A stretch of 14,014 nucleotides of DNA from a virus (lineage: Duplodnaviria > Heunggongvirae > Uroviricota > Caudoviricetes): the IMG/VR virus record IMGVR_UViG_3300031088_000819; one strand, 5' to 3'. Both the position numbers and the translations under genes were made by a program. The notes under the pieces are model-generated. The model was given only the letters and a program-made list of their open reading frames with translations. It did no database searches and had not been told where the DNA came from. How positions within the stretch are numbered: the stretch's first letter is position 1; every line of letters begins with the position of its first letter. Below are positions 872-12,615 of this stretch, in pieces.

Positions 872-1189
872 ATGGTTACTATTCAGACAACTGCCGCCAA
901 CCACAAGCAGCTGATTTCAGAGGGCACAGTAGTGCTCGACTTCTGGGCGCCCTGGTGTGGTCCCTGTATTAGCTTTGCACCAGTCTTCGAAGAGGCCAGC
1001 GAGAACAATGTTGGAATAGCTTTTGGCAAGGTGAATGTGGATGAAGAACCAGAACTTGCAGCTCAATATGGAATTCGTTCTATCCCCACTCTAGTGGTGC
1101 TCAAAGATGGTAGAATCGTCCGCAGAGAGGTGGGTGCGTTAAGTGCAGGCGCCCTCGAAGAGCTTCTGAAAAATTTTTCCAATTATTAA
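872..1189 (+). CDS. trxA: Thioredoxin
   Basis: VVLDFWAPWCGPC active site, GKVNVDEEPELAAQYGIRSIPTL cis-Pro motif, 105 aa; AGGAG at 858-862 upstream of the ATG. Confidence 0.95.
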   Translation: MVTIQTTAANHKQLISEGTVVLDFWAPWCGPCISFAPVFEEASENNVGIAFGKVNVDEEPELAAQYGIRSIPTLVVLKDGRIVRREVGALSAGALEELLKNFSNY

Positions 1190-1894: not shown

Positions 1895-1903
1895 TGTTAG
1901 ACT
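1895..1903 (+). promoter_or_regulatory. Extended -10 element (TGnTAGACT) for a probably leaderless glf transcript
   Basis: TG 1895-1896, TAGACT 1898-1903, then 6 nt to ATG 1910. No Shine-Dalgarno, and it lies just past a terminator. This geometry is typical of actinobacterial leaderless mRNAs. Confidence 0.6.
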
Positions 1904-1909
1904 GAATCT

Positions 1910-3307
1910 ATGACACAATTTGAACCGGATCTTCTCGTAGTTGGTGCAGGCATCTTTGGCCTCACCGTTGCCCGCAAGGCTGCCGATGACGGCCATAGAG
2001 TGCTTGTGCTCGAGCGCCGAAGCCACATCGGTGGCAACTGCTATGATTACCGCGATCCAGAGACTGGCGTCATGGTACACAAGTATGGCTCCCATCTTCT
2101 CCACTCCCCCAACGCTGAAGTCTGGGACTTTCTAGGTCGCTTCACAGATTTCTCCAACTATGAGCACCGAGTTTTTGCCAACGCCGGCGGACAGGTCTAC
2201 TCCTTTCCCATGAACCTGAGCCTCATTGCTCAGGTCTATGGTCGCTATTTCAGTCCCGAAGAGGCTAAGGAACTCATCACAGAGGAAGCTTCGGAGTTTA
2301 GCTCCAAAGAGGCAAAGAACCTCGAAGAGAAAGCCATCAGCCTCGTGGGTAGGAAGCTCTACGAGAAGTTCATCAAGGGCTACACCTCGAAGCAGTGGCA
2401 AACTTCTCTCACAGAGCTCGATCCCTCCATCATCACTCGTCTGCCGGTGCGCTACAGCTTTGACAATCGCTACTTCAGTGATAAGCACCAGGGGCAGCCA
2501 GCCGAAGGCTACACGGCCATGTTTCAGAAGATGGTGGATCACCCTCTCATAGAGGTTCGCTACGGTGTGGACTACTTTGCCGAGAAAGCTGCAGGAAACT
2601 TCGAGAACATTCCAACGGTCTACACGGGGCCTCTGGATGAGTACTTCGGCTACGATCTAGGTAGGCTCCAGTGGCGCACGGTGGACTTCGAGAACGAAGT
2701 TCTGGATGTGGATGATTTCCAGGGCACTTCGGTAATGAACTACAATGACGAGGAAGTTCCCTACACTAGGATCCTTGAGCACCAGCACTACGATCCCCAA
2801 GCCGCTGATAGCAAGGTCGCTGGCAAGACAATCATCAGCCGGGAGTACTCCCGCTTCGCTGAGCCCGGGGATGAGGTCTACTACCCCATCAATAGCGATG
2901 CTAACAGGGAGCTGGCAGCTGTCTACAAGAGGCGAGCTAAAGCCGAAGAAGAGCGGGGAGTCTACTTCGGTGGAAGGCTGGCTACTTTCACATATCTTGA
3001 TATTTGGCAGGCAACAAATAGTGCTATGCATCTCTACGGAAAGAAGCTCCAGGATAAGCTATCCATTGCTGCCTCGGTTCCGTTGAGAGTGCAACAGCTC
3101 CGAGATCTCATAGAAGAGCTTGTGCTGATTGTTCGGGAGTTCGGCGGCGAGGGTCCCGGCGATGAGATTAAATACGAGCTCGTTAGGCGCACTGGAGTGG
3201 CTATGAGCGATGCTCATTACATCGCCAACAGTGCAGTGGCTGACCACAGGATTGAATATAGTCTGCGCAGCGATAGAATCAAGCTGATCGGAGAGATCGG
3301 GGACTAG
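1910..3307 (+). CDS. glf: UDP-galactopyranose mutase (Glf/UGM) with an ~80-aa C-terminal extension
   Basis: FAD Rossmann motif VVGAGIFG, ERRSHIGGNCY, YGSHLLH, YEHRV, KQWQT, RLPVRYSFDNRYF, YTRILEH, YYPIN and GGRLATFTYLD match the flavin-dependent UGM family along its whole length. The ORF continues about 80 aa past where known UGMs end. Confidence 0.95.
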   Translation: MTQFEPDLLVVGAGIFGLTVARKAADDGHRVLVLERRSHIGGNCYDYRDPETGVMVHKYGSHLLHSPNAEVWDFLGRFTDFSNYEHRVFANAGGQVYSFPMNLSLIAQVYGRYFSPEEAKELITEEASEFSSKEAKNLEEKAISLVGRKLYEKFIKGYTSKQWQTSLTELDPSIITRLPVRYSFDNRYFSDKHQGQPAEGYTAMFQKMVDHPLIEVRYGVDYFAEKAAGNFENIPTVYTGPLDEYFGYDLGRLQWRTVDFENEVLDVDDFQGTSVMNYNDEEVPYTRILEHQHYDPQAADSKVAGKTIISREYSRFAEPGDEVYYPINSDANRELAAVYKRRAKAEEERGVYFGGRLATFTYLDIWQATNSAMHLYGKKLQDKLSIAASVPLRVQQLRDLIEELVLIVREFGGEGPGDEIKYELVRRTGVAMSDAHYIANSAVADHRIEYSLRSDRIKLIGEIGD

Positions 3308-3515
3308 AGCTCAGCGGGAGCCTAATTCCAATCTACCATGATCCCACGAGCTGCCATCCTGAAGGTCGATGTCTTGTTTTTCTAGAATCTGGCAAAACCG
3401 AACCTCATGGGTCTTTAGATATAGCTTTCACAGGGAATCTCTGGCGGAAATCTCGTTAGAGTGATCTCACTAGTAGCACCACCCAAAATAGGTTGTAGAG
3501 AGGGAAACCAACACA

Positions 3516-4997
3516 ATGGCCGAAACACCAAAAAAGCCCAAGAGCAGAGGGCCGATTCCGCTCTTAGGCGATGGCGCCAAGAATAGGAATCGCAGGGTTA
3601 GCCTCCCCGCGGAGAGCACCATGGAGTTCCATCCGGAGTTCCCCATCGGAGACATCGTTCCCCGGGAGAAGGAAACTCGCTACCACTCCGAGGACACTCG
3701 CCAGGTGATCCTCGACCAGCTGGAAAACTTCGGCTGGGTTGCTCCCATTGTGTTGGATGCCGATCACAACATCGTGGATGGCCAGTATCGCTATGAGATC
3801 GCCCTCGACCAGGGCTTCAAAACGGTGCCCGTGGTGGTGAGCACGGGCGTCTCCAAGGAGAACGGCACTACGGACCTCTTCCACATGCTTGGTAACAGGA
3901 TTGTGGAATGGGACAAGTGGAACTTTGCGGCAACTGATGCTGTGCTCAAGGAGCTCGATGGTGGCCTGACCACTGAGAAGCTCCTTGGCCACGACGTGCC
4001 CTCGGAGAAGGGCAAGTTCCGTGAAATCGCCAAGCGGATCGGCTGGTTTGTGGACATCGTCCCCAAGGTGCTCACGGGTTCCTCCGTAACGCTGGAGAAG
4101 CTGGCTCGGCTGCTCACCAAGCAGCTCGCTGGCAAGTACCACTACGATCCCGCACAGCTGCTCTTCATCGAGTCCTTCAGGGAAGAGCTCGAAAACACTC
4201 GCAAGGAAATGATCGCCAATGGCGATGTCGTGGGCGGTGTGGAGATGAAGCTCAAGAAGCACCAGAACGAAGAGGCCGATCTCATGGCCCGCTCCCAGAA
4301 GGTGGCCGAAGAGCAGGGCATCGAACTCGAGTACCAGTGGATTGACACAGACGCCACGGAGAGCACTCCAGCTGAGGATGTGGATAGCGGCGTTCGAGCC
4401 ATCGAAGATAGTGAGGTTCTAGGCACGGCCGTCTTCAGCGCAGACGCTGAGATCCAGTACATCATCGAAAAGGTGGCCCGACTGGACAGGGAGGGCCGCG
4501 TCCAGGTGCAGACAGCTGCCGACATGAGGGCGCTTTTCAAGCCCCAGCCCGACGCCAAGCTCATGAACCTCCGGCAGTTCAAGCTCATGGCCTACCACTT
4601 CGGCGACATGGGTCTCCAAGAGGCGGAAGATTTCTACAATCTCCACTCCGCCGAGGCCTTCAACGCCAAGGTCGAAGAGATCATGGCCAACGGCAAGTCC
4701 ATTCCGGCAGCCCGCTCAAAGAACTTCCCACAGAACGAGGAGGAGACCCGGGCGGAGCTCAAGAGGCTCGCCGAGGAGGATGAGGCTCGGCTCGCCAAGG
4801 AGTTGTCCAAGTCCAAGGCCGCTGGTCCAAAGGAGCTAACTGTGGCTCAGCTTAGGAAGCTCATCTCTGACAATGGCGCTAAGCCCTCTGGCACCAAGAA
4901 GCAGGAGCTCCAGGATCAGCTCCGTGAGCTGGGCTTCGATGGCTATGGGAACCCCATCGAGAAGACCGAAGAGCTAGCAGGGGGAGAAGAGCAGTAA
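3516..4997 (+). CDS. Phage-type ParB/Srx-like domain protein with C-terminal SAP/Rho-N-like DNA-binding motif
   Basis: N-terminal ETRYH..LENFGWVAPIVLD..IVDGQYR..VPVVV..GNRIVEWDKWN resembles the ParB-like domain of phage DNA-modification proteins. C-terminal ELTVAQLRKLISDNGAKPSGTKKQELQDQL is a helix-extension-helix pattern. The stop overlaps the next start (TAATG). Confidence 0.8.
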   Translation: MAETPKKPKSRGPIPLLGDGAKNRNRRVSLPAESTMEFHPEFPIGDIVPREKETRYHSEDTRQVILDQLENFGWVAPIVLDADHNIVDGQYRYEIALDQGFKTVPVVVSTGVSKENGTTDLFHMLGNRIVEWDKWNFAATDAVLKELDGGLTTEKLLGHDVPSEKGKFREIAKRIGWFVDIVPKVLTGSSVTLEKLARLLTKQLAGKYHYDPAQLLFIESFREELENTRKEMIANGDVVGGVEMKLKKHQNEEADLMARSQKVAEEQGIELEYQWIDTDATESTPAEDVDSGVRAIEDSEVLGTAVFSADAEIQYIIEKVARLDREGRVQVQTAADMRALFKPQPDAKLMNLRQFKLMAYHFGDMGLQEAEDFYNLHSAEAFNAKVEEIMANGKSIPAARSKNFPQNEEETRAELKRLAEEDEARLAKELSKSKAAGPKELTVAQLRKLISDNGAKPSGTKKQELQDQLRELGFDGYGNPIEKTEELAGGEEQ

Positions 4998-6013
4998 TGG
5001 ATCACATCTACATCCCCTCTCGCGGCAGAGCGAAGACGGCCTCCACCCACAAGCACTTCGAGTTCTTCGGCCACCACGGCTGGACCTATGTGGTGGAACC
5101 CCAGGATCAGCTCAACTACATTCGGATGCTCGAAAAGCAGGGCATAGAAAACCCCTATGAGCATGTCTTTGTCTTCGACGTGGACATCTACAAGGAGGCC
5201 TACGACAGGGTTAACAATCCTCTGGGCTACAACTACTTCGATGACCTCGGTTGGCGCCCTGGCCTCACCACGGGCCCTGGCCCAGCGCGCAACGCGATCC
5301 ACCAGCTGGCTCGGGAGCGGGGCCAAGAGCACTACTACATGCTCGACGATGACATCCTCAACTTCGGAGTGGATTCCTTCTTCTTCCAGAAGGGTGTCTA
5401 CAGGCAGGCCACGAGCAAGGCGCCCGCCAAGGAGCGGATCAATCTCGTAAAGTTCTTCGAGCTCTTCGAACGCTGGCTCGATAAGTACGAGAACGTGGGC
5501 CTAGCGGAGTTCGAAAAGGCCGGCATGGCCATGAACCACCGTAAGAACAAACATCTTTCGTTCAACTCGAAAACTTACTCCTGCATTAGGATCCCCACGA
5601 AGATCGAATCTCCCTGGGAAGGCCGCTACAATGATGATGTCTGCGCGAGTCTCAATGTGCTGAGAAAGGGCTTCGTCAATGTGAGCTCCAAGATGGTGGC
5701 CTACCAGACCCCCGAGTCCCAGAAGCAGGCCGGCGGCATGACGGAAGCTTTTGCGGCAGTTGGTGGAACCTTCGACAAGGTGAAGTATCTGCTGAAGGCC
5801 TACCCCGAGGTTTCCGATCTGGCGCTGAAGTTTGGAAGAATGCACCATCAGGTTTCCTACAACCGCTACAACAGCCCCCTGATCCTCAAGCCGGGCGCCT
5901 CGCTGGATGACCTGGTCTTCGACCTCGAGGATGTCTTCGGCGACCAGTTGGCCGACAGGGTGCTAGCCGAGGGGAAGTTCTTGGATGGCATAGCTCTGGA
6001 GCATTTGCTCTAA
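4997..6013 (+). CDS. TAGT/GREB1-like GT-A fold glycosyltransferase (phage DNA-modification type)
   Basis: IYIPSRGR, YVVEPQD, FDDLG..TGPGPARN, metal-binding YYMLDDDI, KTYSCIRI, WEGRYNDD, QKQAGGMTE and FGRMHHQVSY follow, in order, the motifs of the TET-associated glycosyltransferase family related to T-even beta-glucosyl-HMC alpha-glucosyltransferase. Confidence 0.85.
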   Translation: MDHIYIPSRGRAKTASTHKHFEFFGHHGWTYVVEPQDQLNYIRMLEKQGIENPYEHVFVFDVDIYKEAYDRVNNPLGYNYFDDLGWRPGLTTGPGPARNAIHQLARERGQEHYYMLDDDILNFGVDSFFFQKGVYRQATSKAPAKERINLVKFFELFERWLDKYENVGLAEFEKAGMAMNHRKNKHLSFNSKTYSCIRIPTKIESPWEGRYNDDVCASLNVLRKGFVNVSSKMVAYQTPESQKQAGGMTEAFAAVGGTFDKVKYLLKAYPEVSDLALKFGRMHHQVSYNRYNSPLILKPGASLDDLVFDLEDVFGDQLADRVLAEGKFLDGIALEHLL

Positions 6014-6024
6014 GTTCTGGTTTT

Positions 6025-6066
6025 CTAGAGGGTGTCTGATTTTCATTGGACACCCTCTAGTTGTTT
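6025..6066 (+). terminator. Intrinsic terminator after the parB-glycosyltransferase pair
   Basis: CTAGAGGGTGTC 6025-6036 / GACACCCTCTAG 6049-6060, a perfect 12-bp stem followed by TTGTTT. Confidence 0.8.
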
Positions 6067-6139
6067 CCAGGTGATAGGAGAACGTAGTTGTCAGAACGGT
6101 AACTGTGGGATTTTTCCCAGTGCGATTTGCATTGGTGTT

Positions 6140-6145: not shown

Positions 6146-6199
6146 ATGTATGATTGTTCTGACACCACCCGTTCCCAACTAACAAAGGCAACGCTCAAA

Positions 6200-7960
6200 G
6201 TGAGTAAATTTATCACCACAATCCTCGCAGGTAGCCTCGTGTTTTCTCCCCTGTCGGCCGTTGCGGCTCAGGATTCTAGCGAAGAGCCTGCTCCCCTGCC
6301 CAGCTTCGAAGCTGCCATCCCCACTGCCCCTCCCGTGACCCAGATGCCTCTTCCCGTCGAGGAAGAGAACCCCACGGAGACACCGTCACCGAGCCCTTCT
6401 CCTTCGGATCTCCCCACTGTGGCGCCTCAGCCAAAGGCGGAGGTTCCAGAAGTTGAGCTTTCGGAGGTCGAGGAATCCCCTGCTTCCGAAGAGCCCGCCG
6501 AGGAGACCCCTGAGGATGTCCCCCAGGAGGACCTCGAGGCGGTTCAGGAGAAGTCTGCCGATGATCTCGAGCTCGATGCCGCTCTGCAGGCGAGCGCTAA
6601 GAAGGTGGTCAATGGTAACTATGTGCTTCCCCTGGCCTCCAAGAGCTACTGGCTTTCGAGCTATTTCGGTCCTCGCTGCCCCGTGGCTCCGGGTGCTAGC
6701 ACCTTCCATGGCGCCATCGACATGGCTGCACCGCGTGGTACTGATCTCTACGCTATTACCAGCGGCACGGTTGAATCCGTTGACCGAGCCAACGGCACAC
6801 TGAGGATTCGCTTCTCCAAGGATCTTCTCATTAGCTTCGGCCACATTGACAACCCCACGAAGTTCGTGAGCATCGGCCAGAAGGTCTCCAAGGGCCAGAA
6901 GGTCGCCGAGGTTGGCAACACGGGCATCTCCAACGGTCCCCACCTCCACCTCGCTATCCAGCACAAGGGCACTTGGGTTGATCCTCTGAAGTTCCTCGCT
7001 GATCGCGGCATCAATGTGAAGAGCCACGCTACTCGTGTGGCGGCAAACACTCCCACGAATTGCACTGTCTACACAACCGCTAAGACGGGGCTCAAGCAGT
7101 CTGCTAGCAATGATTCTAAGACCCTGCGGGTGCTCCCCAAGGGCACTCAGCTCTCCATGGCTGCCACTAACTCTTCGGGTTTCTGGAAGGTGAAGACAAC
7201 CGATGGTAAGACGGGTTACATCCACGCCCAGCGAGCCAGCACCCACAAGAACCCGAACACTCAGCCTAGCGTTTCCTACGGTTCCCGCAAGGCCAATGAG
7301 AAGTACTCTCTCCGCTATTCGCGCCATCTCTTCGACTACCCCGGTAGGACCGAGTGGTCCCGAGGCATCATGGAGACAATTAAGGCCAAGCAGCATGTTG
7401 TGACCACTGGCCGCACGGCTAACGGCTACACTGAGGTTAAGTGGGGATCCCAGAAGGGCTGGCTGGCTCTGGATGCCGCTGATAAGGTCACGGAGAAGCC
7501 CAAGAGCGTGTCTGTCTACCGCTTCTGGTCTCCCAAGTTCGGCGATGCCCACTTCTATACCTCCAACAAGGCTGAGGCCGACAAGGTCCGCACAACTGAC
7601 AAGAACTGGACTTACGAGGGCGTGGATTTCAAGATCTGGCCCCTCCAGGGTGGCAAGTGCGCTGAGGGAACTGCCCCCATCCATCGCTTCTGGTCTTCGA
7701 AGCTGAGCTCCCACCTCTACACTGCTAGCGCTACCGAAGCCAAGAATCTCCGCAAGGCTGGTTCGGGTTGGTCGTCGGACGGCATTGTCTTCTGTGGTGG
7801 CACCCAGGCGGCCAGTGGCACTAAGGCTGTCCATCGCTTCTGGTCCCCGAAGTTCAAGAAGTATTTCTACACCGCTAACCAGGCGGAGGCTAAGAAGATC
7901 CGCAGTAGCGACCGCAACTGGAACTACGAGGGTGTGTCCTTCTATGCTCCCAACTCCTAA
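6200..7960 (+). CDS. Secreted M23-family peptidoglycan endopeptidase with two SH3-like domains and three C-terminal RFWS..HFYT repeats (DUF5648-like)
   Basis: ORF is open from 6146. GTG 6200 is preferred because it starts a signal peptide (SKFITTILAGSLVFSPLSAVAA). A Pro/Glu linker follows, then Zn motifs HGAID (HxxxD) and HLH, SH3b-like blocks ending KTGYIH and KGWLA, and three repeats V/I-Y/H-RFWS..H/Y-F/L-YT..EA. Confidence 0.9.
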   Translation: MSKFITTILAGSLVFSPLSAVAAQDSSEEPAPLPSFEAAIPTAPPVTQMPLPVEEENPTETPSPSPSPSDLPTVAPQPKAEVPEVELSEVEESPASEEPAEETPEDVPQEDLEAVQEKSADDLELDAALQASAKKVVNGNYVLPLASKSYWLSSYFGPRCPVAPGASTFHGAIDMAAPRGTDLYAITSGTVESVDRANGTLRIRFSKDLLISFGHIDNPTKFVSIGQKVSKGQKVAEVGNTGISNGPHLHLAIQHKGTWVDPLKFLADRGINVKSHATRVAANTPTNCTVYTTAKTGLKQSASNDSKTLRVLPKGTQLSMAATNSSGFWKVKTTDGKTGYIHAQRASTHKNPNTQPSVSYGSRKANEKYSLRYSRHLFDYPGRTEWSRGIMETIKAKQHVVTTGRTANGYTEVKWGSQKGWLALDAADKVTEKPKSVSVYRFWSPKFGDAHFYTSNKAEADKVRTTDKNWTYEGVDFKIWPLQGGKCAEGTAPIHRFWSSKLSSHLYTASATEAKNLRKAGSGWSSDGIVFCGGTQAASGTKAVHRFWSPKFKKYFYTANQAEAKKIRSSDRNWNYEGVSFYAPNS

Positions 7961-7993
7961 GCGCTAAGCTGCCGGATTGCTCCGGTAAACCCT

Positions 7994-8030
7994 AGAGGGT
8001 CGGAACCATTTGGTTCCGGCCCTCTTTTGT
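7994..8030 (+). terminator. Intrinsic terminator after the M23 gene
   Basis: AGAGGGTCGGAACC-attt-GGTTCCGGCCCTCT, a 14-bp stem with one G-U pair, followed by TTTGT. Confidence 0.85.
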
Positions 8031-8169
8031 AGCGCTGGAGAGGGTAGGGTTGGACGGGGCGGCGATGTGATATGCCAAAGAAATAACTAAAGATTTTCGG
8101 TGCTAAATTAGCGCGCGAAATGCCCCTTTGACATCTAACCAGAGCAGTTTTCTTGCCAGAAGGAATGTA

Positions 8170-11100
8170 ATGTACAGAAAAAAGAAACCCACTGGAGATT
8201 CTTTCTTCAGGAAAAAAATAGTACCGCTTGCCCTCGTGGGTAGTTTAGTTTCCGGTGGGCTCATTCTCACCGCGGCTCCAGCTAATGCAGACATTCCTGG
8301 TGCCACTGTCTCCGGTTGGGATGGAGAGCCGATTGCTGTTGGGCCGAATGTTGAATCGGAAGTTGTTAGCCTCTCTGGTCTTCGGCCGGGAGCGGACGTA
8401 ATCTACTACAGGAACATCAGCAGCACTGGCCAGCTGAACTCTTCTTTTACCAACGTGGGAGCTAGGCTAACGGTTGGCGAAGATGGCACCCTCGATGCGC
8501 CAATTGGTTGGTTCGCAGCCTCCTCTGCCCCAGCCTATAACATAACCCTTGGAGCAGACGGTAAAATCAACTGGGCTGCAAAAACAACCTCCGCGGGCAA
8601 GGTGAGGCTCGTTCAGGAGCAAGAGAGCGGCCAAACTAACATCAATAATCCCGACAACTACTTCGAGTTCCCTGTAGAACTAGAGGAACATGTGCCGGAA
8701 GTTGGAGAGCTTCCAGCGGATGGCTATGTGGGCAGTGAGATCACAGCAGAGGTTGGCAATGTTCAAGCGTCAGCTCGCACCAATCCTGTAAACACGGGTC
8801 AAGGACGTGGGAATTCAGCAACTGCGGCTGCCCTTGAGCTTCTGGACGCTTCAGATGGGAGTCTCGCCCGTAAGAACGTATCCTACAGTGAAACTGATGC
8901 CAATGGAGATCAGACACTCACTATTAGGATTCCCGAAAATGCACCAAGTGGCACTGCCACTCTCCAAGCCGGCGGCATGTCAAATATTGAAACATTGAAT
9001 AGCCCTCTGAGCGATACCCGCTTGGCTGAAGCCGCCATGGAGAGGGTTGACCCCAGTGAGATCTCTCTGGTTGAGCTTCCCGGCGGAGATGATGAAACCT
9101 ACGATCAAGTGGTAATGGACATTCCGTTCTCTGGTGATGATCTCCTCGGACTCGAACGAGATTTCACCATCTATACGGCTCTGCTGGAAAATGTAAATCC
9201 CGTTGAAAAGGGCGATTTCGTAGTTGTCAGCGGAGCCGACTATCGCCCCGGCGACGTAGTACTCGTTAGCGTGGATGGCGTGGGAGCCATTGAGGTTGAA
9301 GTAGATGCAGATGGCAACTACTTGGCGGAGATTCCAACCACAGAATCGACGCCCTCCGGTGAACACGCTGTAGTGGTAACTACTCCAAATGCCGATGCGC
9401 CTCGCCGCACAGGTGTGGCAGAGGTTGAGGGGGATGACTCAGCCCCAATAGCATCTGCAGAGCTTGTCGTCCCAACGAGGACATTCGATGTCACTGGAAC
9501 TGGATTCACTCCGGGTGTTACCTATAGGCTTAATCTCGTCGATACGGCCAACGGAAATGCTCTTAGCTCTAGCGTTACGGGTAGATCCCTCATCACCAAT
9601 GCCGAAATGGGTGCGTCAGTGACGGGGGTCGCCGACGATGAAGGGAATCTCACCATCACGGCGGCATTCGATCCCGCAAAAGCTCCCCACGAAGTGCGAA
9701 ACGCAAATGGCGAGCTCCTCCCCAATAGGATGGCCATTACAGTGCAAGGAAGCAGCGAGATAGTTGCCGAACTACCCTTTACGATCTTCCATGCTGATCC
9801 CGCGATTGACGAGATTCCCAAGGAAGTCTACGCTGGCCAAGAAGTGGCTGTGGTCGGTCACAATCTGTTCAAGCTCGAAGGTGCTGGCGCAGGCATCTAT
9901 GGCGGACTCGTTCGTACTAGCTTGGGCATTCTCGGACTTCCCGAAGACGCCCCCATCGATCTCAATGCTTTCCTCATCAATGTTAAGGACTTCGAAGCTG
10001 CAGGTCAACTCGAAGGAACCGTAGAGGAAAAATTCGCTGCGATGAGGGCGGCGGTTGCTGATCTGGGAAGCGCAGCCGTTGAAAACATTGGAGACAGTGC
10101 TACAATCGCCCTACGAGTGCCCTCCGATGCAAAGTCGGGCGAATACATGATTATGCAGCACGCCTATGCGAATCCCGCCTATGTGATTGGTTCGGGTGCT
10201 GTTGAATCTGGCGCTGGAGTCACCCAGGAGCTTACAGTTAGGACAGCAATACTCAATGATACAGACGCTGTAAAGCAAGGCGAAACAATCGTGGTAACCG
10301 GTTCCGATTACATCCCCGGTGACACTGTAACAGTTACCATCGAGGGCATCGGCGAAAGAACCGCTGTCGTTGCTGATGATGGAAGCTATTCCGTCGAGTT
10401 CCAAACTACTGGAGCTACTACTGTTGGAAATCACACTGTAACAGCAGTTGTTGAAAACGCTCCCACTCGCGAAGGCTCTGTAGAGGTAATTGCCGACGAG
10501 CAGGTCGTCTACGATCCCGTAGTTGAAGCTGGTTCCAGCGTGCCCGGTGGAGAACTCCCCGTGTCCGGTGGTGGTTGGATCCCAGGTAACGAAGTTGAGA
10601 TCGTTCTTACAGATCCCGACGGTAACCCCGTGGGCGAATCCGTAGTGGTCACAATAGATGAAGATGGCAACATCCCCGAGGGCACAGTTCTTCCAGTTCC
10701 CGAAGGTGCTGAACCTGGAAGCTACACTGTGGTTGCCACCGATCCCGTAGCTGAACTTGTCAGGGAGGCTCCAGCGGAAATCGTTCCCTCCGAGGGTCCC
10801 GAAGTTCCCGTCTACGACCCCACAATTAGCGGAGAAAACGTCGAAGCAGGACAGCGTGCTGCTATCGAGGGTGGCGGATGGCCAGCTCTTACAGAGGTTG
10901 AGATCGTCATCCTTGACGAAAATGGTAACACCATCGGGGAACCCATCACTGTTATAACAGATGAGAATGGAAACCTTCCCGAAGGCACTTCCTATCTCAT
11001 TCCCGAAGGCACTACACCAGGAAGCTACATAGTACGCGGTTCTACCGAAGAGGGTCTTGTGAGAGAGTCTACTCTCGCAGTTCTTCCCACAGAGCAAGAA

Positions 11101-11511
11101 CCCGGTGAGCCTGGTGAACCTGGTGAACCTGGAGAGCCCGGTGAACCTGGGGAGCCTGGAGAGCCCGGTCAGCCCGGTCAGCCCGGTGAACCTGGTGAGC
11201 CTGGAGAGCCTGGTGAGCCTGGTCAGCCCGGGGAACCTGGTGAGCCTGGAGAACCTGGTGAGCCTGGAGAGCCTGGAGAGCCTGGAGAAACAGAAATTCC
11301 CACTCCCACAGATCCTGGTAAGAAACCAGAACCCCAGGAGAATGGCAACGAAGAAGGTCGTAACGGTGGCGCTAAGACAGATCCCGAAGAGGGCTCCCTC
11401 GCAAAAACCGGTGGTGAAGTTGCTACTCCGCTACTTGTAGGAGCTGGTGCTACAATCCTCGGAGGATTGGCGCTTCTCATTGGTGGTCTTCGCCGGCGTT
11501 TCCGCGCCTAA
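8170..11511 (+). CDS. Large sortase-anchored surface protein with Ig-like repeats, collagen-like stalk and LAxTG sorting signal
   Basis: AGGA at 8161-8164 before ATG 8170 (ORF track starts at TTG 8128). Signal peptide ending AAPANA; several V.V.G.G(Y/F/W).PG..V beta-sandwich repeats; (PGE/Q)21; LAKTG followed by a hydrophobic helix and RRRFRA tail. Confidence 0.92.
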   Translation: MYRKKKPTGDSFFRKKIVPLALVGSLVSGGLILTAAPANADIPGATVSGWDGEPIAVGPNVESEVVSLSGLRPGADVIYYRNISSTGQLNSSFTNVGARLTVGEDGTLDAPIGWFAASSAPAYNITLGADGKINWAAKTTSAGKVRLVQEQESGQTNINNPDNYFEFPVELEEHVPEVGELPADGYVGSEITAEVGNVQASARTNPVNTGQGRGNSATAAALELLDASDGSLARKNVSYSETDANGDQTLTIRIPENAPSGTATLQAGGMSNIETLNSPLSDTRLAEAAMERVDPSEISLVELPGGDDETYDQVVMDIPFSGDDLLGLERDFTIYTALLENVNPVEKGDFVVVSGADYRPGDVVLVSVDGVGAIEVEVDADGNYLAEIPTTESTPSGEHAVVVTTPNADAPRRTGVAEVEGDDSAPIASAELVVPTRTFDVTGTGFTPGVTYRLNLVDTANGNALSSSVTGRSLITNAEMGASVTGVADDEGNLTITAAFDPAKAPHEVRNANGELLPNRMAITVQGSSEIVAELPFTIFHADPAIDEIPKEVYAGQEVAVVGHNLFKLEGAGAGIYGGLVRTSLGILGLPEDAPIDLNAFLINVKDFEAAGQLEGTVEEKFAAMRAAVADLGSAAVENIGDSATIALRVPSDAKSGEYMIMQHAYANPAYVIGSGAVESGAGVTQELTVRTAILNDTDAVKQGETIVVTGSDYIPGDTVTVTIEGIGERTAVVADDGSYSVEFQTTGATTVGNHTVTAVVENAPTREGSVEVIADEQVVYDPVVEAGSSVPGGELPVSGGGWIPGNEVEIVLTDPDGNPVGESVVVTIDEDGNIPEGTVLPVPEGAEPGSYTVVATDPVAELVREAPAEIVPSEGPEVPVYDPTISGENVEAGQRAAIEGGGWPALTEVEIVILDENGNTIGEPITVITDENGNLPEGTSYLIPEGTTPGSYIVRGSTEEGLVRESTLAVLPTEQEPGEPGEPGEPGEPGEPGEPGEPGQPGQPGEPGEPGEPGEPGQPGEPGEPGEPGEPGEPGEPGETEIPTPTDPGKKPEPQENGNEEGRNGGAKTDPEEGSLAKTGGEVATPLLVGAGATILGGLALLIGGLRRRFRA
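11101..11289 (+). repeat. In-frame 9-bp tandem repeat encoding 21 x Pro-Gly-Glu/Gln
   Basis: CC(C/T)GGN(G/C)A(A/G) repeated 21 times, counted from the sequence; synonymous variation between copies. Confidence 0.97.
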
Positions 11512-12141: not shown

Positions 12142-12615
12142 ATGTATGTTTTCGAAGAGCGGGGCCAATCGAATCCGCAGGCCTCTTCTGTAGAAAAGCT
12201 TTCTAGCGATGCTGCTACTCAAATCAGCTATATTCCTCCGGTCTACGAAGATCCAGTGGCTGTTTTTAATAGGGTTCTCATAGAGGCCTACGAGTTGGGC
12301 CGGAGGCTCACAGCACTTGAGGTTAAAGAGCTCGCAGTGGCTGCCATCGAAGATGATTGGCCAAAAGATTTCCCCTTTAGGAGCCAGCTCCATAGGGACA
12401 TTCAGCTGAGGCTCGATGGAAAGTTCATCGGTGTGGAGCGCGATGTTCAGGAGAACAAGAGGTGGCAGACACTTATCCCAATTGCAGGCGGCTCTGCTCC
12501 GGTATCCACTTACCCTAAAATCATGGCGGCAATCCGCGAATCGCTGTCCTACTACCCCAAGGATCGATGGCGGCTACTCCGCAAAAAGCCCCGCGTTCCG
12601 AAGGCTCATAGATAG
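12142..12615 (+). CDS. Hypothetical protein
   Basis: 157-aa ORF packed between co-oriented genes, GGAG upstream, basic C-terminal tail. No family recognised. Confidence 0.65.
   Translation: MYVFEERGQSNPQASSVEKLSSDAATQISYIPPVYEDPVAVFNRVLIEAYELGRRLTALEVKELAVAAIEDDWPKDFPFRSQLHRDIQLRLDGKFIGVERDVQENKRWQTLIPIAGGSAPVSTYPKIMAAIRESLSYYPKDRWRLLRKKPRVPKAHR

Follow-up and report, generated by a model that had tools for sequence, protein, structure and literature searches.

Three consecutive genes lie on the + strand of the 14,014-nt stretch of viral DNA analysed here (henceforth referred to as the window): glf at 1910-3307, a gene for a ParB-N/SAP protein (henceforth parB) at 3516-4997 and a gene for a TAGT glycosyltransferase at 4997-6013. 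An earlier reading made from the sequence alone had placed three co-oriented genes here, assigned them to the UDP-galactopyranose mutase (UGM), ParB-SAP and TAGT families and taken a TAATG to couple the last two; the ORF coordinates, the profile and structure matches described below and a stop/start overlap at 4997 bear this out. Terminator-like hairpins were also found where it had set bounding terminators. Upstream of glf (1849-1886, + strand) a stem-loop at 1849-1876 with 12 pairs, 8 of them G-C, is followed by the T-rich tail TTTTTGTGTT, and downstream of the TAGT gene (6025-6070, + strand) a 16-pair stem at 6025-6060 is followed by a weak T-rich tail. Inside the trio the sole + strand terminator candidate listed is a weak 6-pair site that coincides with the TAGT stop codon (5997-6012), in agreement with the claim that no convincing terminator separates the genes. 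A -10-like hexamer, TAGACT, at 1898-1903 (+ strand; element 1898-1909) ends 6 nt before the glf ATG and may be the promoter of a leaderless glf mRNA. The 208-bp spacer between glf and parB (3308-3515, + strand) holds no + strand terminator in the terminator listing of the window, and its 3' half (about 3395-3515), with an A/C-rich leader at its end, is shared with a relative whose TAGT is 94% identical. Since this conserved element lies upstream of parB, parB and the TAGT gene probably have a promoter and leader of their own, separate from glf; the earlier reading had allowed for separate transcription in view of the 208-bp gap. A gene for a 1127-aa collagen-repeat protein is found 2 kb downstream of the trio.

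The glf product (465 aa) matches PF03275 at E 2e-74, the TIGR00031 equivalog with 328 bits (cut-off 303.75) and, over residues 6-390, solved actinobacterial UGMs at E 2e-140, and these profile matches identify it as a true UDP-galactopyranose mutase. The mutase core (residues 1-385; 1910-3064, + strand) contains the FAD Rossmann motif and conserved RLPVRY, YTRI, YYPIN and GGRL stretches, and belongs to a phage-type GLF clade of 63-95% identity from which actinobacterial GLFs, 60% identical at most, are distinct. The C-terminal 80 residues (386-465; 3065-3307, + strand) form an extension which AF2 models with a pLDDT of 87 and a pTM of 0.76 in a helix-strand-helix-helix-hairpin topology. The top PDB matches of this model are all winged-helix proteins (BrxR, CapW, STIV F93, MarR and cullin WHB; E about 0.01, TM 0.55-0.7), and on this model the extension gives the mutase a winged-helix domain. 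GLFs of 64-74% identity also have the extension; relatives that are 95% and 87% identical lack it, which indicates that the tail is dispensable.

The parB product (493 aa; 3516-4997, + strand) has a ParB/Srx domain at its N-terminus, with matches to PHROG ParB families (E 1e-14) and to phrog_498 (ParB-methylase; E 4.5e-14); the structural matches of its AF2 model are ParB-CDP, Noc, KorB and sulfiredoxin. This nucleotide-binding fold covers about residues 36-150, with GQYR where canonical ParB has GERR, and is followed by a family-specific conserved middle and a helical region, to about residue 430, and by a SAP motif at about residues 439-471; the tails of the protein are lysine-rich. The SAP match of the window protein is weak (PF02037 E 0.002, 18.1 bits, under the 23.9 cut-off); PF02037 is recorded in 27 of 34 homologues, and the family profile also picks up solved SAP domains, at E 0.01-0.02. 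Profile and structure searches found neither a canonical ParB HTH or dimerisation domain in the protein nor a ParA. The third product (338 aa; 4997-6013, + strand) is identified as a TAGT, of the TET-associated/beta-glucosyl-HMC-alpha-glucosyltransferase family, by its matches to PF20691 (67.4 bits, cut-off 27.5) and phrog_842 (E 7e-27), and going by the published fold of the family it would be a GT-A enzyme. Its DDD motif (residues 117-119) is invariant across 21 homologues, seven lineage-specific replacements occur at positions otherwise conserved, and its identity to the phage TAGTs of the reference collection is 24-31%. The sequence-only reading had credited both partners of the mutase with extra DNA-binding-like modules: this held for the ParB protein (SAP) and not for the TAGT, in which no such module was found, so that with the winged helix of the mutase two of the three proteins carry one.

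Adjacency of parB and the TAGT gene recurs in megaphage contigs (L005, L020-L023 and L035-L037), where the genes often touch, and in integrated elements of Microbacterium and Leucobacter (L003 and L004), where the pair is convergently arranged. Judged by this gene order, the ParB-TAGT pair is an old, conserved core. Within this family glf joins the pair only in the close lineage of the window; for most pairs no glf lies within 10 kb, and in a complete 419.7-kb relative (G001) it is absent from the entire genome. In a 94% relative (L019) the trio is kept although both flanks differ. In a 673-kb relative glf, the TAGT gene and the ParB-SAP gene are dispersed, each in a different stretch, with glf tens of kb from the TAGT gene by the coordinates of two near-equal-length assemblies, and across the clade the conserved neighbour of glf is nucS, not the TAGT gene. 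ParB-SAP is encoded away from the TAGT in a 66%-identity clade, and a Curtobacterium homologue has no TAGT within 8 kb.

A second, unrelated lineage was found to combine the same gene families. In an 84-kb viral contig of 43% GC from a siphovirus-like lineage (L060, in record G004), overlapping genes follow the order glf, ParB-like, ATP-grasp, short TAGT, MgsA_C-like, PLP decarboxylase and terminase; a further contig (L059) holds glf, parB and ATP-grasp and then ends. The proteins are not orthologues of those of the window (GLF 38% identical, low hhalign probabilities). In the sister contigs L076 and L077 the core from the ParB-like gene to the TAGT is retained and glf is lacking. Instead they encode a PLP decarboxylase, a Mur-ligase-like protein and a homologue of thymidylate synthase (PF00303, E 7e-52), a set which beside this core points to a pyrimidine-hypermodification cluster. 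The idea that glf co-occurs with parB-TAGT elsewhere thus finds support in L060 and L059 and none in most of the pairs. Since glf sits upstream of parB in both lineages and is absent from relatives, it is an optional module that was added at one and the same position on two occasions, which fits a donor-supply role for DNA glycosylation.

The sequence-only reading had also noted that no wzx/wzy, ABC transporter or cell-wall glycosyltransferase accompanies glf, and profile searches of the window ORFs, which represent part of a roughly 475-kb genome, gave no match to wzx/wzy, to an ABC transporter or to a further glycosyltransferase family; nor does another glycosyltransferase lie beside glf in L049 and L051. 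An enzyme that would generate an acceptor base was not seen in the window, G001, G004 or near the cellular copies: no thymidylate-synthase homologue was found in G001 or G004, and a TET/JBP search of the same two records, which had no positive control, gave no match.

Known systems provide partial parallels. The earlier reading, which knew of no characterised Galf-DNA pathway, is outdated on this point: arabinofuranose on phage DNA has been shown by NMR, with arabinofuranosyl-5-hydroxycytosine in RB69 and DLP3, and Lee et al. (NAR 2026) proposed that UDP-Galf made by a phage UGM serves the glycosylated 5-hydroxycytosine of Rhizobium phage RL38J1 (PMC13326640), so the idea of Galf on phage DNA is not wholly new. 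As is proposed for the window, Pootjesviridae such as RL38J1 have a UGM in a DNA-glycosylation gene neighbourhood (PMC13326640). However, they use a 5hodCMP synthase of the thymidylate-synthase family, and their glycosyltransferases were not picked up by tblastn with the window TAGT (zero Rhizobium matches), whereas the window has a TAGT, a ParB-N/SAP partner and a winged-helix mutase tail and shows no acceptor synthase; ParB and TAGT are unmentioned in that paper. The founding phage TAGT, the beta-glucosyl-HMC-alpha-glucosyltransferase of T2/T6, shares Pfam PF20691, the PHROG and a DXD-type motif with the window protein and adds glucose to glucosyl-hmC in DNA (PMC13216743, PMC13390438), but that glucosyl-hmC is made by alpha-GT, and neither an alpha-GT nor a beta-GT nor an hmC synthase is seen in the window. 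Phage T-dioxygenases need ParB-like proteins in order to act on dsDNA (5mYOX176 with ParB176; O'Toole et al., PNAS 2026, PMC13229309), and there too a ParB-fold protein without canonical HTH is encoded beside a DNA-modifying enzyme, in that case post-replicative. The window partner is a glycosyltransferase rather than a dioxygenase, and its ParB protein is much longer than ParB176, with a family-specific middle region, a SAP motif and GQYR instead of GERR. Mobile elements likewise link the ParB nucleotide-binding fold with DNA modification in the ParB-N/DNA methyltransferase fusions of phages (PNAS 2025, PMC12704722); there the fold and the enzyme are fused, whereas here they are separate, translationally coupled genes, and glycosyltransferases are unmentioned in that survey of the ParB-CTPase fold.

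We give an even chance to the reading that the trio is a DNA-glycosylation (hypermodification) module, with ParB-SAP and TAGT as its core and UDP-galactofuranose made by glf as the donor. The strongest alternative, though unlikely, is that the ParB-TAGT pair glycosylates DNA with a common host donor (UDP-Glc, UDP-Gal or UDP-GlcNAc) and that glf is unrelated, its Galf going to another glycan, such as one on the virion or one in an altered host envelope, that a different transferase would make. Actinobacteriophages are able to glycosylate their virions. Such a role of glf would agree with the synteny of glf with nucS, its dispersal in the 673-kb relative, the many pairs without it and the separate conserved element upstream of parB; virion glycosylation is also suggested in one genome note (PMC11256854). 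Yet two unrelated lineages have glf immediately before parB, as an optional gene in both, no other glycosyltransferase accompanies it in the window, L049 or L051, and phage UGM is already linked to DNA glycosylation clusters in Pootjesviridae (PMC13326640). We consider it rather improbable that the TAGT glycosylates protein, with or without Galf, whether the target is ParB-SAP, some other protein bound to DNA, or a protein of the virion, for instance the collagen-like one. GREB1, a eukaryotic protein with a homologous glycosyltransferase domain (as PF20691 is named), O-GlcNAcylates a protein, ER-alpha, with UDP-GlcNAc (PMC7968844), searches of G001, of G004 and around the cellular copies yielded no enzyme that would make an acceptor base, and the collagen-repeat gene is close by; but the context and partners of GREB1 are unrelated to the trio, the T2/T6 TAGT works on DNA, L076 groups ParB-TAGT with a thymidylate-synthase homologue, and L019 has the trio without collagen-like and M23 genes. 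Less probable again is that ParB-SAP serves megaphages in genome organisation or partition and that its adjacency to TAGT is inherited synteny without a functional tie: the 66%-identity clade, where it is encoded apart from TAGT, its lone Curtobacterium homologue and its nucleoid-protein-like lysine-rich tails would suit this, but megaphages and cellular integrated elements share the adjacency in differing orientations, a short ParB distinct from this one is likewise paired with another TAGT in L060 and L076, and ParA, the canonical ParB domains and GERR are missing.

Overall, the analysis shows to which families the three proteins belong, that the pairing of ParB with TAGT is conserved, and that glf recurs independently just upstream of this pair. 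In the DNA-glycosylation module that we favour, the ParB-like protein would bind DNA through its nucleotide-binding ParB fold, SAP motif and basic tails and, comparable to the ParB-like activators of thymine dioxygenases, would load, activate or retain the TAGT on double-stranded phage DNA. With an NDP-sugar as donor, the TAGT would glycosylate a modified pyrimidine, either at a hydroxyl of the base or at a sugar that it already bears. As an accessory donor-supply gene recruited beside the ParB-TAGT core, glf would convert host UDP-galactopyranose to UDP-galactofuranose, and galactofuranose would then be placed on the DNA. The winged-helix tail may tether the mutase to the DNA or to its partners, which would be useful given that the equilibrium of the mutase lies on the pyranose side. 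Galactofuranose on DNA would be unlikely to be recognised by host nucleases and glycosylases, and the huge, uncultivated and probably actinobacterial phage that carries the trio probably uses it to coat its DNA with an unusual sugar and so escape host nucleases.

The three genes of interest in the window, glf (1910-3307, + strand), a ParB-N/SAP gene (3516-4997, + strand) and a TAGT glycosyltransferase gene (4997-6013, + strand), were named in the sequence-only reading, and profile, fold and motif evidence bears out all three identities. The TAATG overlap between parB and TAGT and the 208-bp gap between glf and parB, both part of that reading, are seen in the sequence, and the two hairpins said to bound the block were both found; between these hairpins, the sole terminator-like site listed on the + strand is weak, with 6 pairs, and lies at the TAGT stop. 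On the same strand, the block is preceded by nucS (1-693), a thioredoxin gene (872-1189) and a 196-aa ORF with no assigned family directly upstream of glf (1222-1812), and it is followed by an M23/SH3/DUF5648 peptidase gene (6146-7960) and a gene for a 1127-aa collagen-repeat protein (collagen/MG2/Ig-repeat; 8128-11511), 3' of which lie small ORFs and then an RNase T-like exonuclease gene.

The window GLF protein scored above threshold against the TIGR00031 equivalog in an NCBIfam profile search (328 bits versus a cut-off of 303.75), matched PF03275 in a Pfam profile search (E 2e-74) and aligned over residues 6-390 with solved actinobacterial UDP-galactopyranose mutases (UGMs), 5eqf included (E 2e-140). 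The alignment to 5eqf shows that GxGxxG, RLPVRY, YTRI, YYPIN and GGRL are kept, which we take to be the FAD-binding Rossmann motif and the substrate-loop stretches. The glf product is thus, as judged from its sequence, a member of the UDP-galactopyranose mutase family, and is predicted to interconvert UDP-Galp and UDP-Galf. Its last 80 residues (window 3065-3307) form a confident winged helix in the AF2 model and the fold search. The same domain family also occurs in stand-alone proteins of 82-127 aa (within the set P0196-P0206), fused to a dATP/dGTP pyrophosphohydrolase (P0199), in about seven tandem copies within one protein of 826 aa (P0198) and in the 5' part of the gene that lies 3' of glf in the relative locus L051 (L051:9878-10072). 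The winged helix might anchor the mutase on DNA or on its partners; however, it is not essential, since it is missing from GLFs that are 95% and 87% identical and is gained or lost between GLFs that are 95% identical.

The TAGT protein exceeded the cut-off for PF20691 (67.4 versus 27.5 bits), matched phrog_842 (E 7e-27) and contains an acidic DXD-type DDD motif (D117, D118, D119) that is invariant in 21 homologues. The TAGT family has a GT-A fold (PMC13216743), and its characterised phage member, the TAGT of T2/T6, adds glucose to glucosyl-hmC on DNA (PMC13216743, PMC13390438). When the window TAGT was used as a tblastn query, only 25 of 50,697 phage records matched. The TAGT of the window lineage differs from its relatives at seven sites that are otherwise conserved in 16-18 of 18 sequences (P68A, W114Y, I205S, R208E, D220N, Y221V and R224K), five of which cluster round the invariant W..R.NDDV motif. 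We set these replacements aside as a sign of donor switching, because the consensus residues are still present in a glf-bearing relative of 673 kb.

The ParB-SAP protein has a ParB/Srx N-terminal nucleotide-binding fold and matches PHROG ParB families (E 1e-14). Its AF2 model (mean pLDDT 62, with 70-88 in the N-domain) matched ParB-CDP, Noc, KorB and sulfiredoxin structures in Foldseek, with 6sdk and 7bm8 among the entries, and all matches were restricted to the N-domain. The GERR box of Spo0J aligns with GQYR in the window protein, in which the GERRxRA box II motif was not found. Because GQYR replaces GERR, and G89, Q90 and R92 are invariant across the ParB-SAP family, the protein is suggested to bind nucleotide with altered or absent hydrolysis. 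Pfam gave no HTH or ParB_C match in ParB-SAP and there is no ParA among the window ORFs, which, together with the restriction of the fold matches to the N-domain, argues that this is not a partition ParB of a ParABS system. The SAP motif (PF02037) scored 18.1 bits in the window protein, i.e. below the gathering score of 23.9; it is recorded in 27 of 34 homologues, the family profile matches solved SAP domains (E 0.01-0.02), and the AF2 model places two helices in the SAP region, at residues 443-471. Complex prediction with ParB-SAP residues 30-430 and TAGT returned a score of 0.00, which weighs neither for nor against binding.

We searched every fetched locus by tblastn with all three window proteins. 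A ParB-family gene directly adjoins TAGT in the window, in its relative L019, in megaphage-type L005, L020, L021, L035, L022, L023, L036 and L037 and in the short contig L038, and the two genes are more loosely arranged in L040. Convergent TAGT/ParB pairs are found in integrated elements of Microbacterium (L003, 10001-12845) and Leucobacter (L004, 10001-12877); here, the 3' ends of the two genes overlap and a conserved gene of ~185 aa follows, and the elements around the pair carry resolvase, integrase and FtsK/SpoIIIE genes. Together with Curtobacterium, these two genera hold the closest cellular homologues of the pair. No ParB was found within 10 kb of TAGT in a clade in which TAGT is ~66% identical to that of the window (L002, L027-L034), and the ParB-SAP gene of this clade, 48% identical to that of the window, is located in another region (L047, L048). 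Scanning species genomes with the TAGT profile gave nothing, and with the ParB profile gave one locus, that of Curtobacterium, near whose ParB-family gene no TAGT was found. Overall, ParB-TAGT pairing is frequent and old but not obligatory, because the ~66% TAGT clade and Curtobacterium keep ParB apart from TAGT.

TAGT relatives are found on an IMG/VR record of 419.7 kb that has terminal repeats and is complete per CheckV, and on contigs of 525 and 673 kb. The window locus itself is also present on a 38.6-kb Logan contig, and the same look-up reports a 0.2-1 Mb contig; the sole run containing the whole block is a phyllosphere metagenome, possibly the one from which the window derives, no RNA data sets containing it are listed, and megablast with the DNA of the block gave no match in the phage collection. 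Three separate lineages have a gene of the thioredoxin fold (Thioredoxin_4/DsbA-like or plain) a few genes at most from ParB-TAGT (L022:6539-7438, L023:11196-12080 and window 872-1189), which may be a coincidence.

Within the clade of the window, the evidence linking glf to TAGT is weak. Phage-type GLFs (63-95% identity) group apart from actinobacterial GLFs (60% at most), and glf-parB-TAGT adjacency is confined to the immediate lineage, i.e. the window, L001 and L019, to which a 20.2-kb contig with a 95% identical GLF and a 94% identical ParB probably also belongs. The trio of L019 (TAGT 94%, ParB 90% and GLF 87% identical to the window proteins) is intact even though both flanks differ, with another gene located upstream of glf. 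By contrast, the 673-kb relative has TAGT tens of kb from glf (coordinates of two near-identical assemblies), its glf being preceded by nucS, GH16, AAA_28 and RHS genes and followed by genes with no recorded family match, and the complete 419.7-kb relative (G001) has ParB-TAGT and no glf; it is this dispersal and this absence that weaken the evidence. The locus L051 has glf directly 3' of nucS. Neither ParB nor TAGT was found in four 'Bacteriophage sp.' faecal scaffolds with GLF, and the T4-like Aeromonas phages were rejected as further cases of GLF and TAGT co-occurrence, since 65 and Aeh1 have a TAGT-like gene and no GLF domain.

Several further differences were seen between L019 and the window. 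The M23/SH3/DUF5648 and collagen-repeat genes (window 6146-11511) are absent from L019 (compared at L019:10322-10964), where the gene 3' of TAGT is a different ORF of 157 aa, succeeded by a homologue of window ORF 12142-12615, so that the gene pair looks like a cassette that has been inserted or lost. The nucS homologue of L019 (L019:3469-4157) aligns with window NucS as two pieces lying in different frames (residues 1-115 and 113-230), and the gene caller gives only a 171-aa NucS_N product; a frameshift or a misassembly in L019 is probable. The 3' half of the glf-parB spacer (window 3395-3515 versus L019:7700-7825) is conserved and contains GGTCTTTAGATATAG and a ACCACCCAAA leader, whereas the 5' half is not conserved. 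Since a TAGACT hexamer stands 6 nt before the glf ATG and immediately follows the upstream terminator, parB has a conserved element and an A/C-rich leader in front of it, and the terminator sites listed for the window include no convincing one between glf and parB, we infer that read-through from glf is combined with an internal promoter for parB-TAGT.

A profile of phage GLFs scanned against IMG/VR gave 17 loci, one of which, L060, is located on an 84-kb viral record of 43% GC from an unrelated phage lineage. Its genes, which overlap or nearly touch, are arranged in the order two Lar-like genes, glf, a ParB-like gene, ATP-grasp, a short TAGT, an MgsA_C-like gene, a PLP-dependent decarboxylase and terminase/portal/minor capsid genes. 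The glf product is 38% identical to the window GLF, and the ParB-like gene (202 aa) matches phrog_620 (E 2e-22). With E 6e-4, the short TAGT (243 aa) does not reach the Pfam cut-off; phrog_842 matches it at E 4e-8, both the YIPS.GR and the DDD motif are present, and TAGT/GREB1 families make up 96 of its 100 nearest Atlas clusters (~0.98). The two Lar-like restriction-alleviation genes just upstream of the trio (L060:6775-8148) fit an anti-restriction neighbourhood. A second locus, L059, repeats glf (69%), parB (60%) and ATP-grasp (32%) up to the contig end. Two sister loci, L076 and L077 (TAGT 75% identical), have kept ParB, PLP decarboxylase, ATP-grasp, TAGT and the MgsA_C-like gene and have no glf; upstream of their parB are a thymidylate-synthase homologue (PF00303, E 7e-52) and a Mur-ligase-like gene. 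Thymidylate-synthase homologues, PLP enzymes and ATP-grasp enzymes are the usual set of pyrimidine hypermodification clusters, and their joint presence therefore places the ParB-TAGT core of L076/L077 in a DNA-modification context. The seven genes at L076:1571-9536, and at the same coordinates in L077, form a compact candidate thymidine-hypermodification cluster. In the 5hodCMP synthase, itself a thymidylate-synthase homologue, Asn replaces the residue equivalent to E. coli Asp169 (PMC13326640); by the criteria of that study, the L076 homologue, whose residues at the Asp169 and Asn177 positions are unchanged on visual comparison with the E. coli motif, classifies as dUMP-type, without the 5-hydroxycytosine signature.

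In profile comparison, the window TAGT and ParB families gave low probabilities against the L060 proteins, indicating that the two trios are analogues drawn from the same families and not orthologues. On two occasions, in phages that are unrelated, glf has therefore come to lie directly upstream of a parB-TAGT core, and it is optional in both lineages, which is the pattern expected of a donor-supply accessory; the same pattern is hard to explain if glf serves an unrelated envelope or virion glycan. The expectation that glf would accompany parB-TAGT elsewhere is thus borne out in the L060 lineage and fails in G001, which has no glf, and in the dispersed arrangement of the 673-kb relative.

No acceptor-base synthase producing a hydroxylated base and no alpha/beta-GT was found among the window ORFs, and a thymidylate-synthase homologue was found neither in G001 nor in G004, the record containing L060. 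Tet_JBP gave no match in G001, G004 and five other TAGT-bearing viral records, a result of little weight as the family gave no control match. Atlas look-ups gave no candidate acceptor maker in the 196-aa ORF upstream of glf or in a 253-aa protein of L060. Solitary TAGT transferases are encoded by 288 of 753 glycosyltransferase-encoding phage genomes, their role and acceptor having been left open (PMC13216743). One reading, which we consider improbable, is that the ParB-loaded TAGTs of megaphages and actinobacterial elements glycosylate DNA on an acceptor that does not come from a thymidylate-synthase-family or TET/JBP enzyme, the sugar in the window lineage being galactofuranose. If true, either the acceptor chemistry on DNA would be new or the ParB-fold protein would prepare the site itself, and a second class of ParB-dependent DNA-modifying enzymes would be defined.

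In the model we propose for the window, the mutase would convert UDP-Galp from the host into the UDP-Galf used by TAGT, and ParB-SAP would load or hold TAGT on phage DNA, by analogy with ParB-dependent dioxygenases; we give the full model roughly an even chance of being correct. A subclass of phage thymine dioxygenases needs HTH-less ParB-like proteins to act on dsDNA (PMC13229309), whereas the partner in the window is a glycosyltransferase, and fusions of ParB-N to DNA methyltransferases are common in phages (PMC12704722). We found no published description of a ParB-partnered glycosyltransferase, and none is reported in PMC13229309 or PMC12704722. Arabinofuranose on 5-hydroxycytosine is an established furanose on phage DNA (PMC13326640). 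The idea of a mutase supplying a furanose donor for DNA, reached from the sequence alone, also has a published precedent, as a phage UGM has been proposed as the source of UDP-Galf for glycosylated 5-hydroxycytosine in Rhizobium phage RL38J1 (PMC13326640). In contrast to the RL38J1 pathway, the window locus has a transferase of the TAGT family, a ParB-N/SAP partner and a winged-helix mutase, and no visible acceptor synthase. The glf-parB-TAGT trio, moreover, recurs in unrelated phages.

Sugar-coated phage DNA is a main means of escape from restriction enzymes, CRISPR nucleases and DNA glycosylases, and DNA-glycosylating enzymes are a source of tools for DNA labelling. Whether ParB-like activators also assist enzymes other than dioxygenases has been left open in the literature, and the window trio and its independent L060 twin offer a compact three-gene set linking a donor maker, a DNA-loading factor and a transferase. 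If the model is confirmed, galactofuranose would join the list of DNA sugars, the ParB-activator principle would extend to glycosyltransferases, and phages would be seen to gain and lose donor-supply genes around a fixed ParB-TAGT core.
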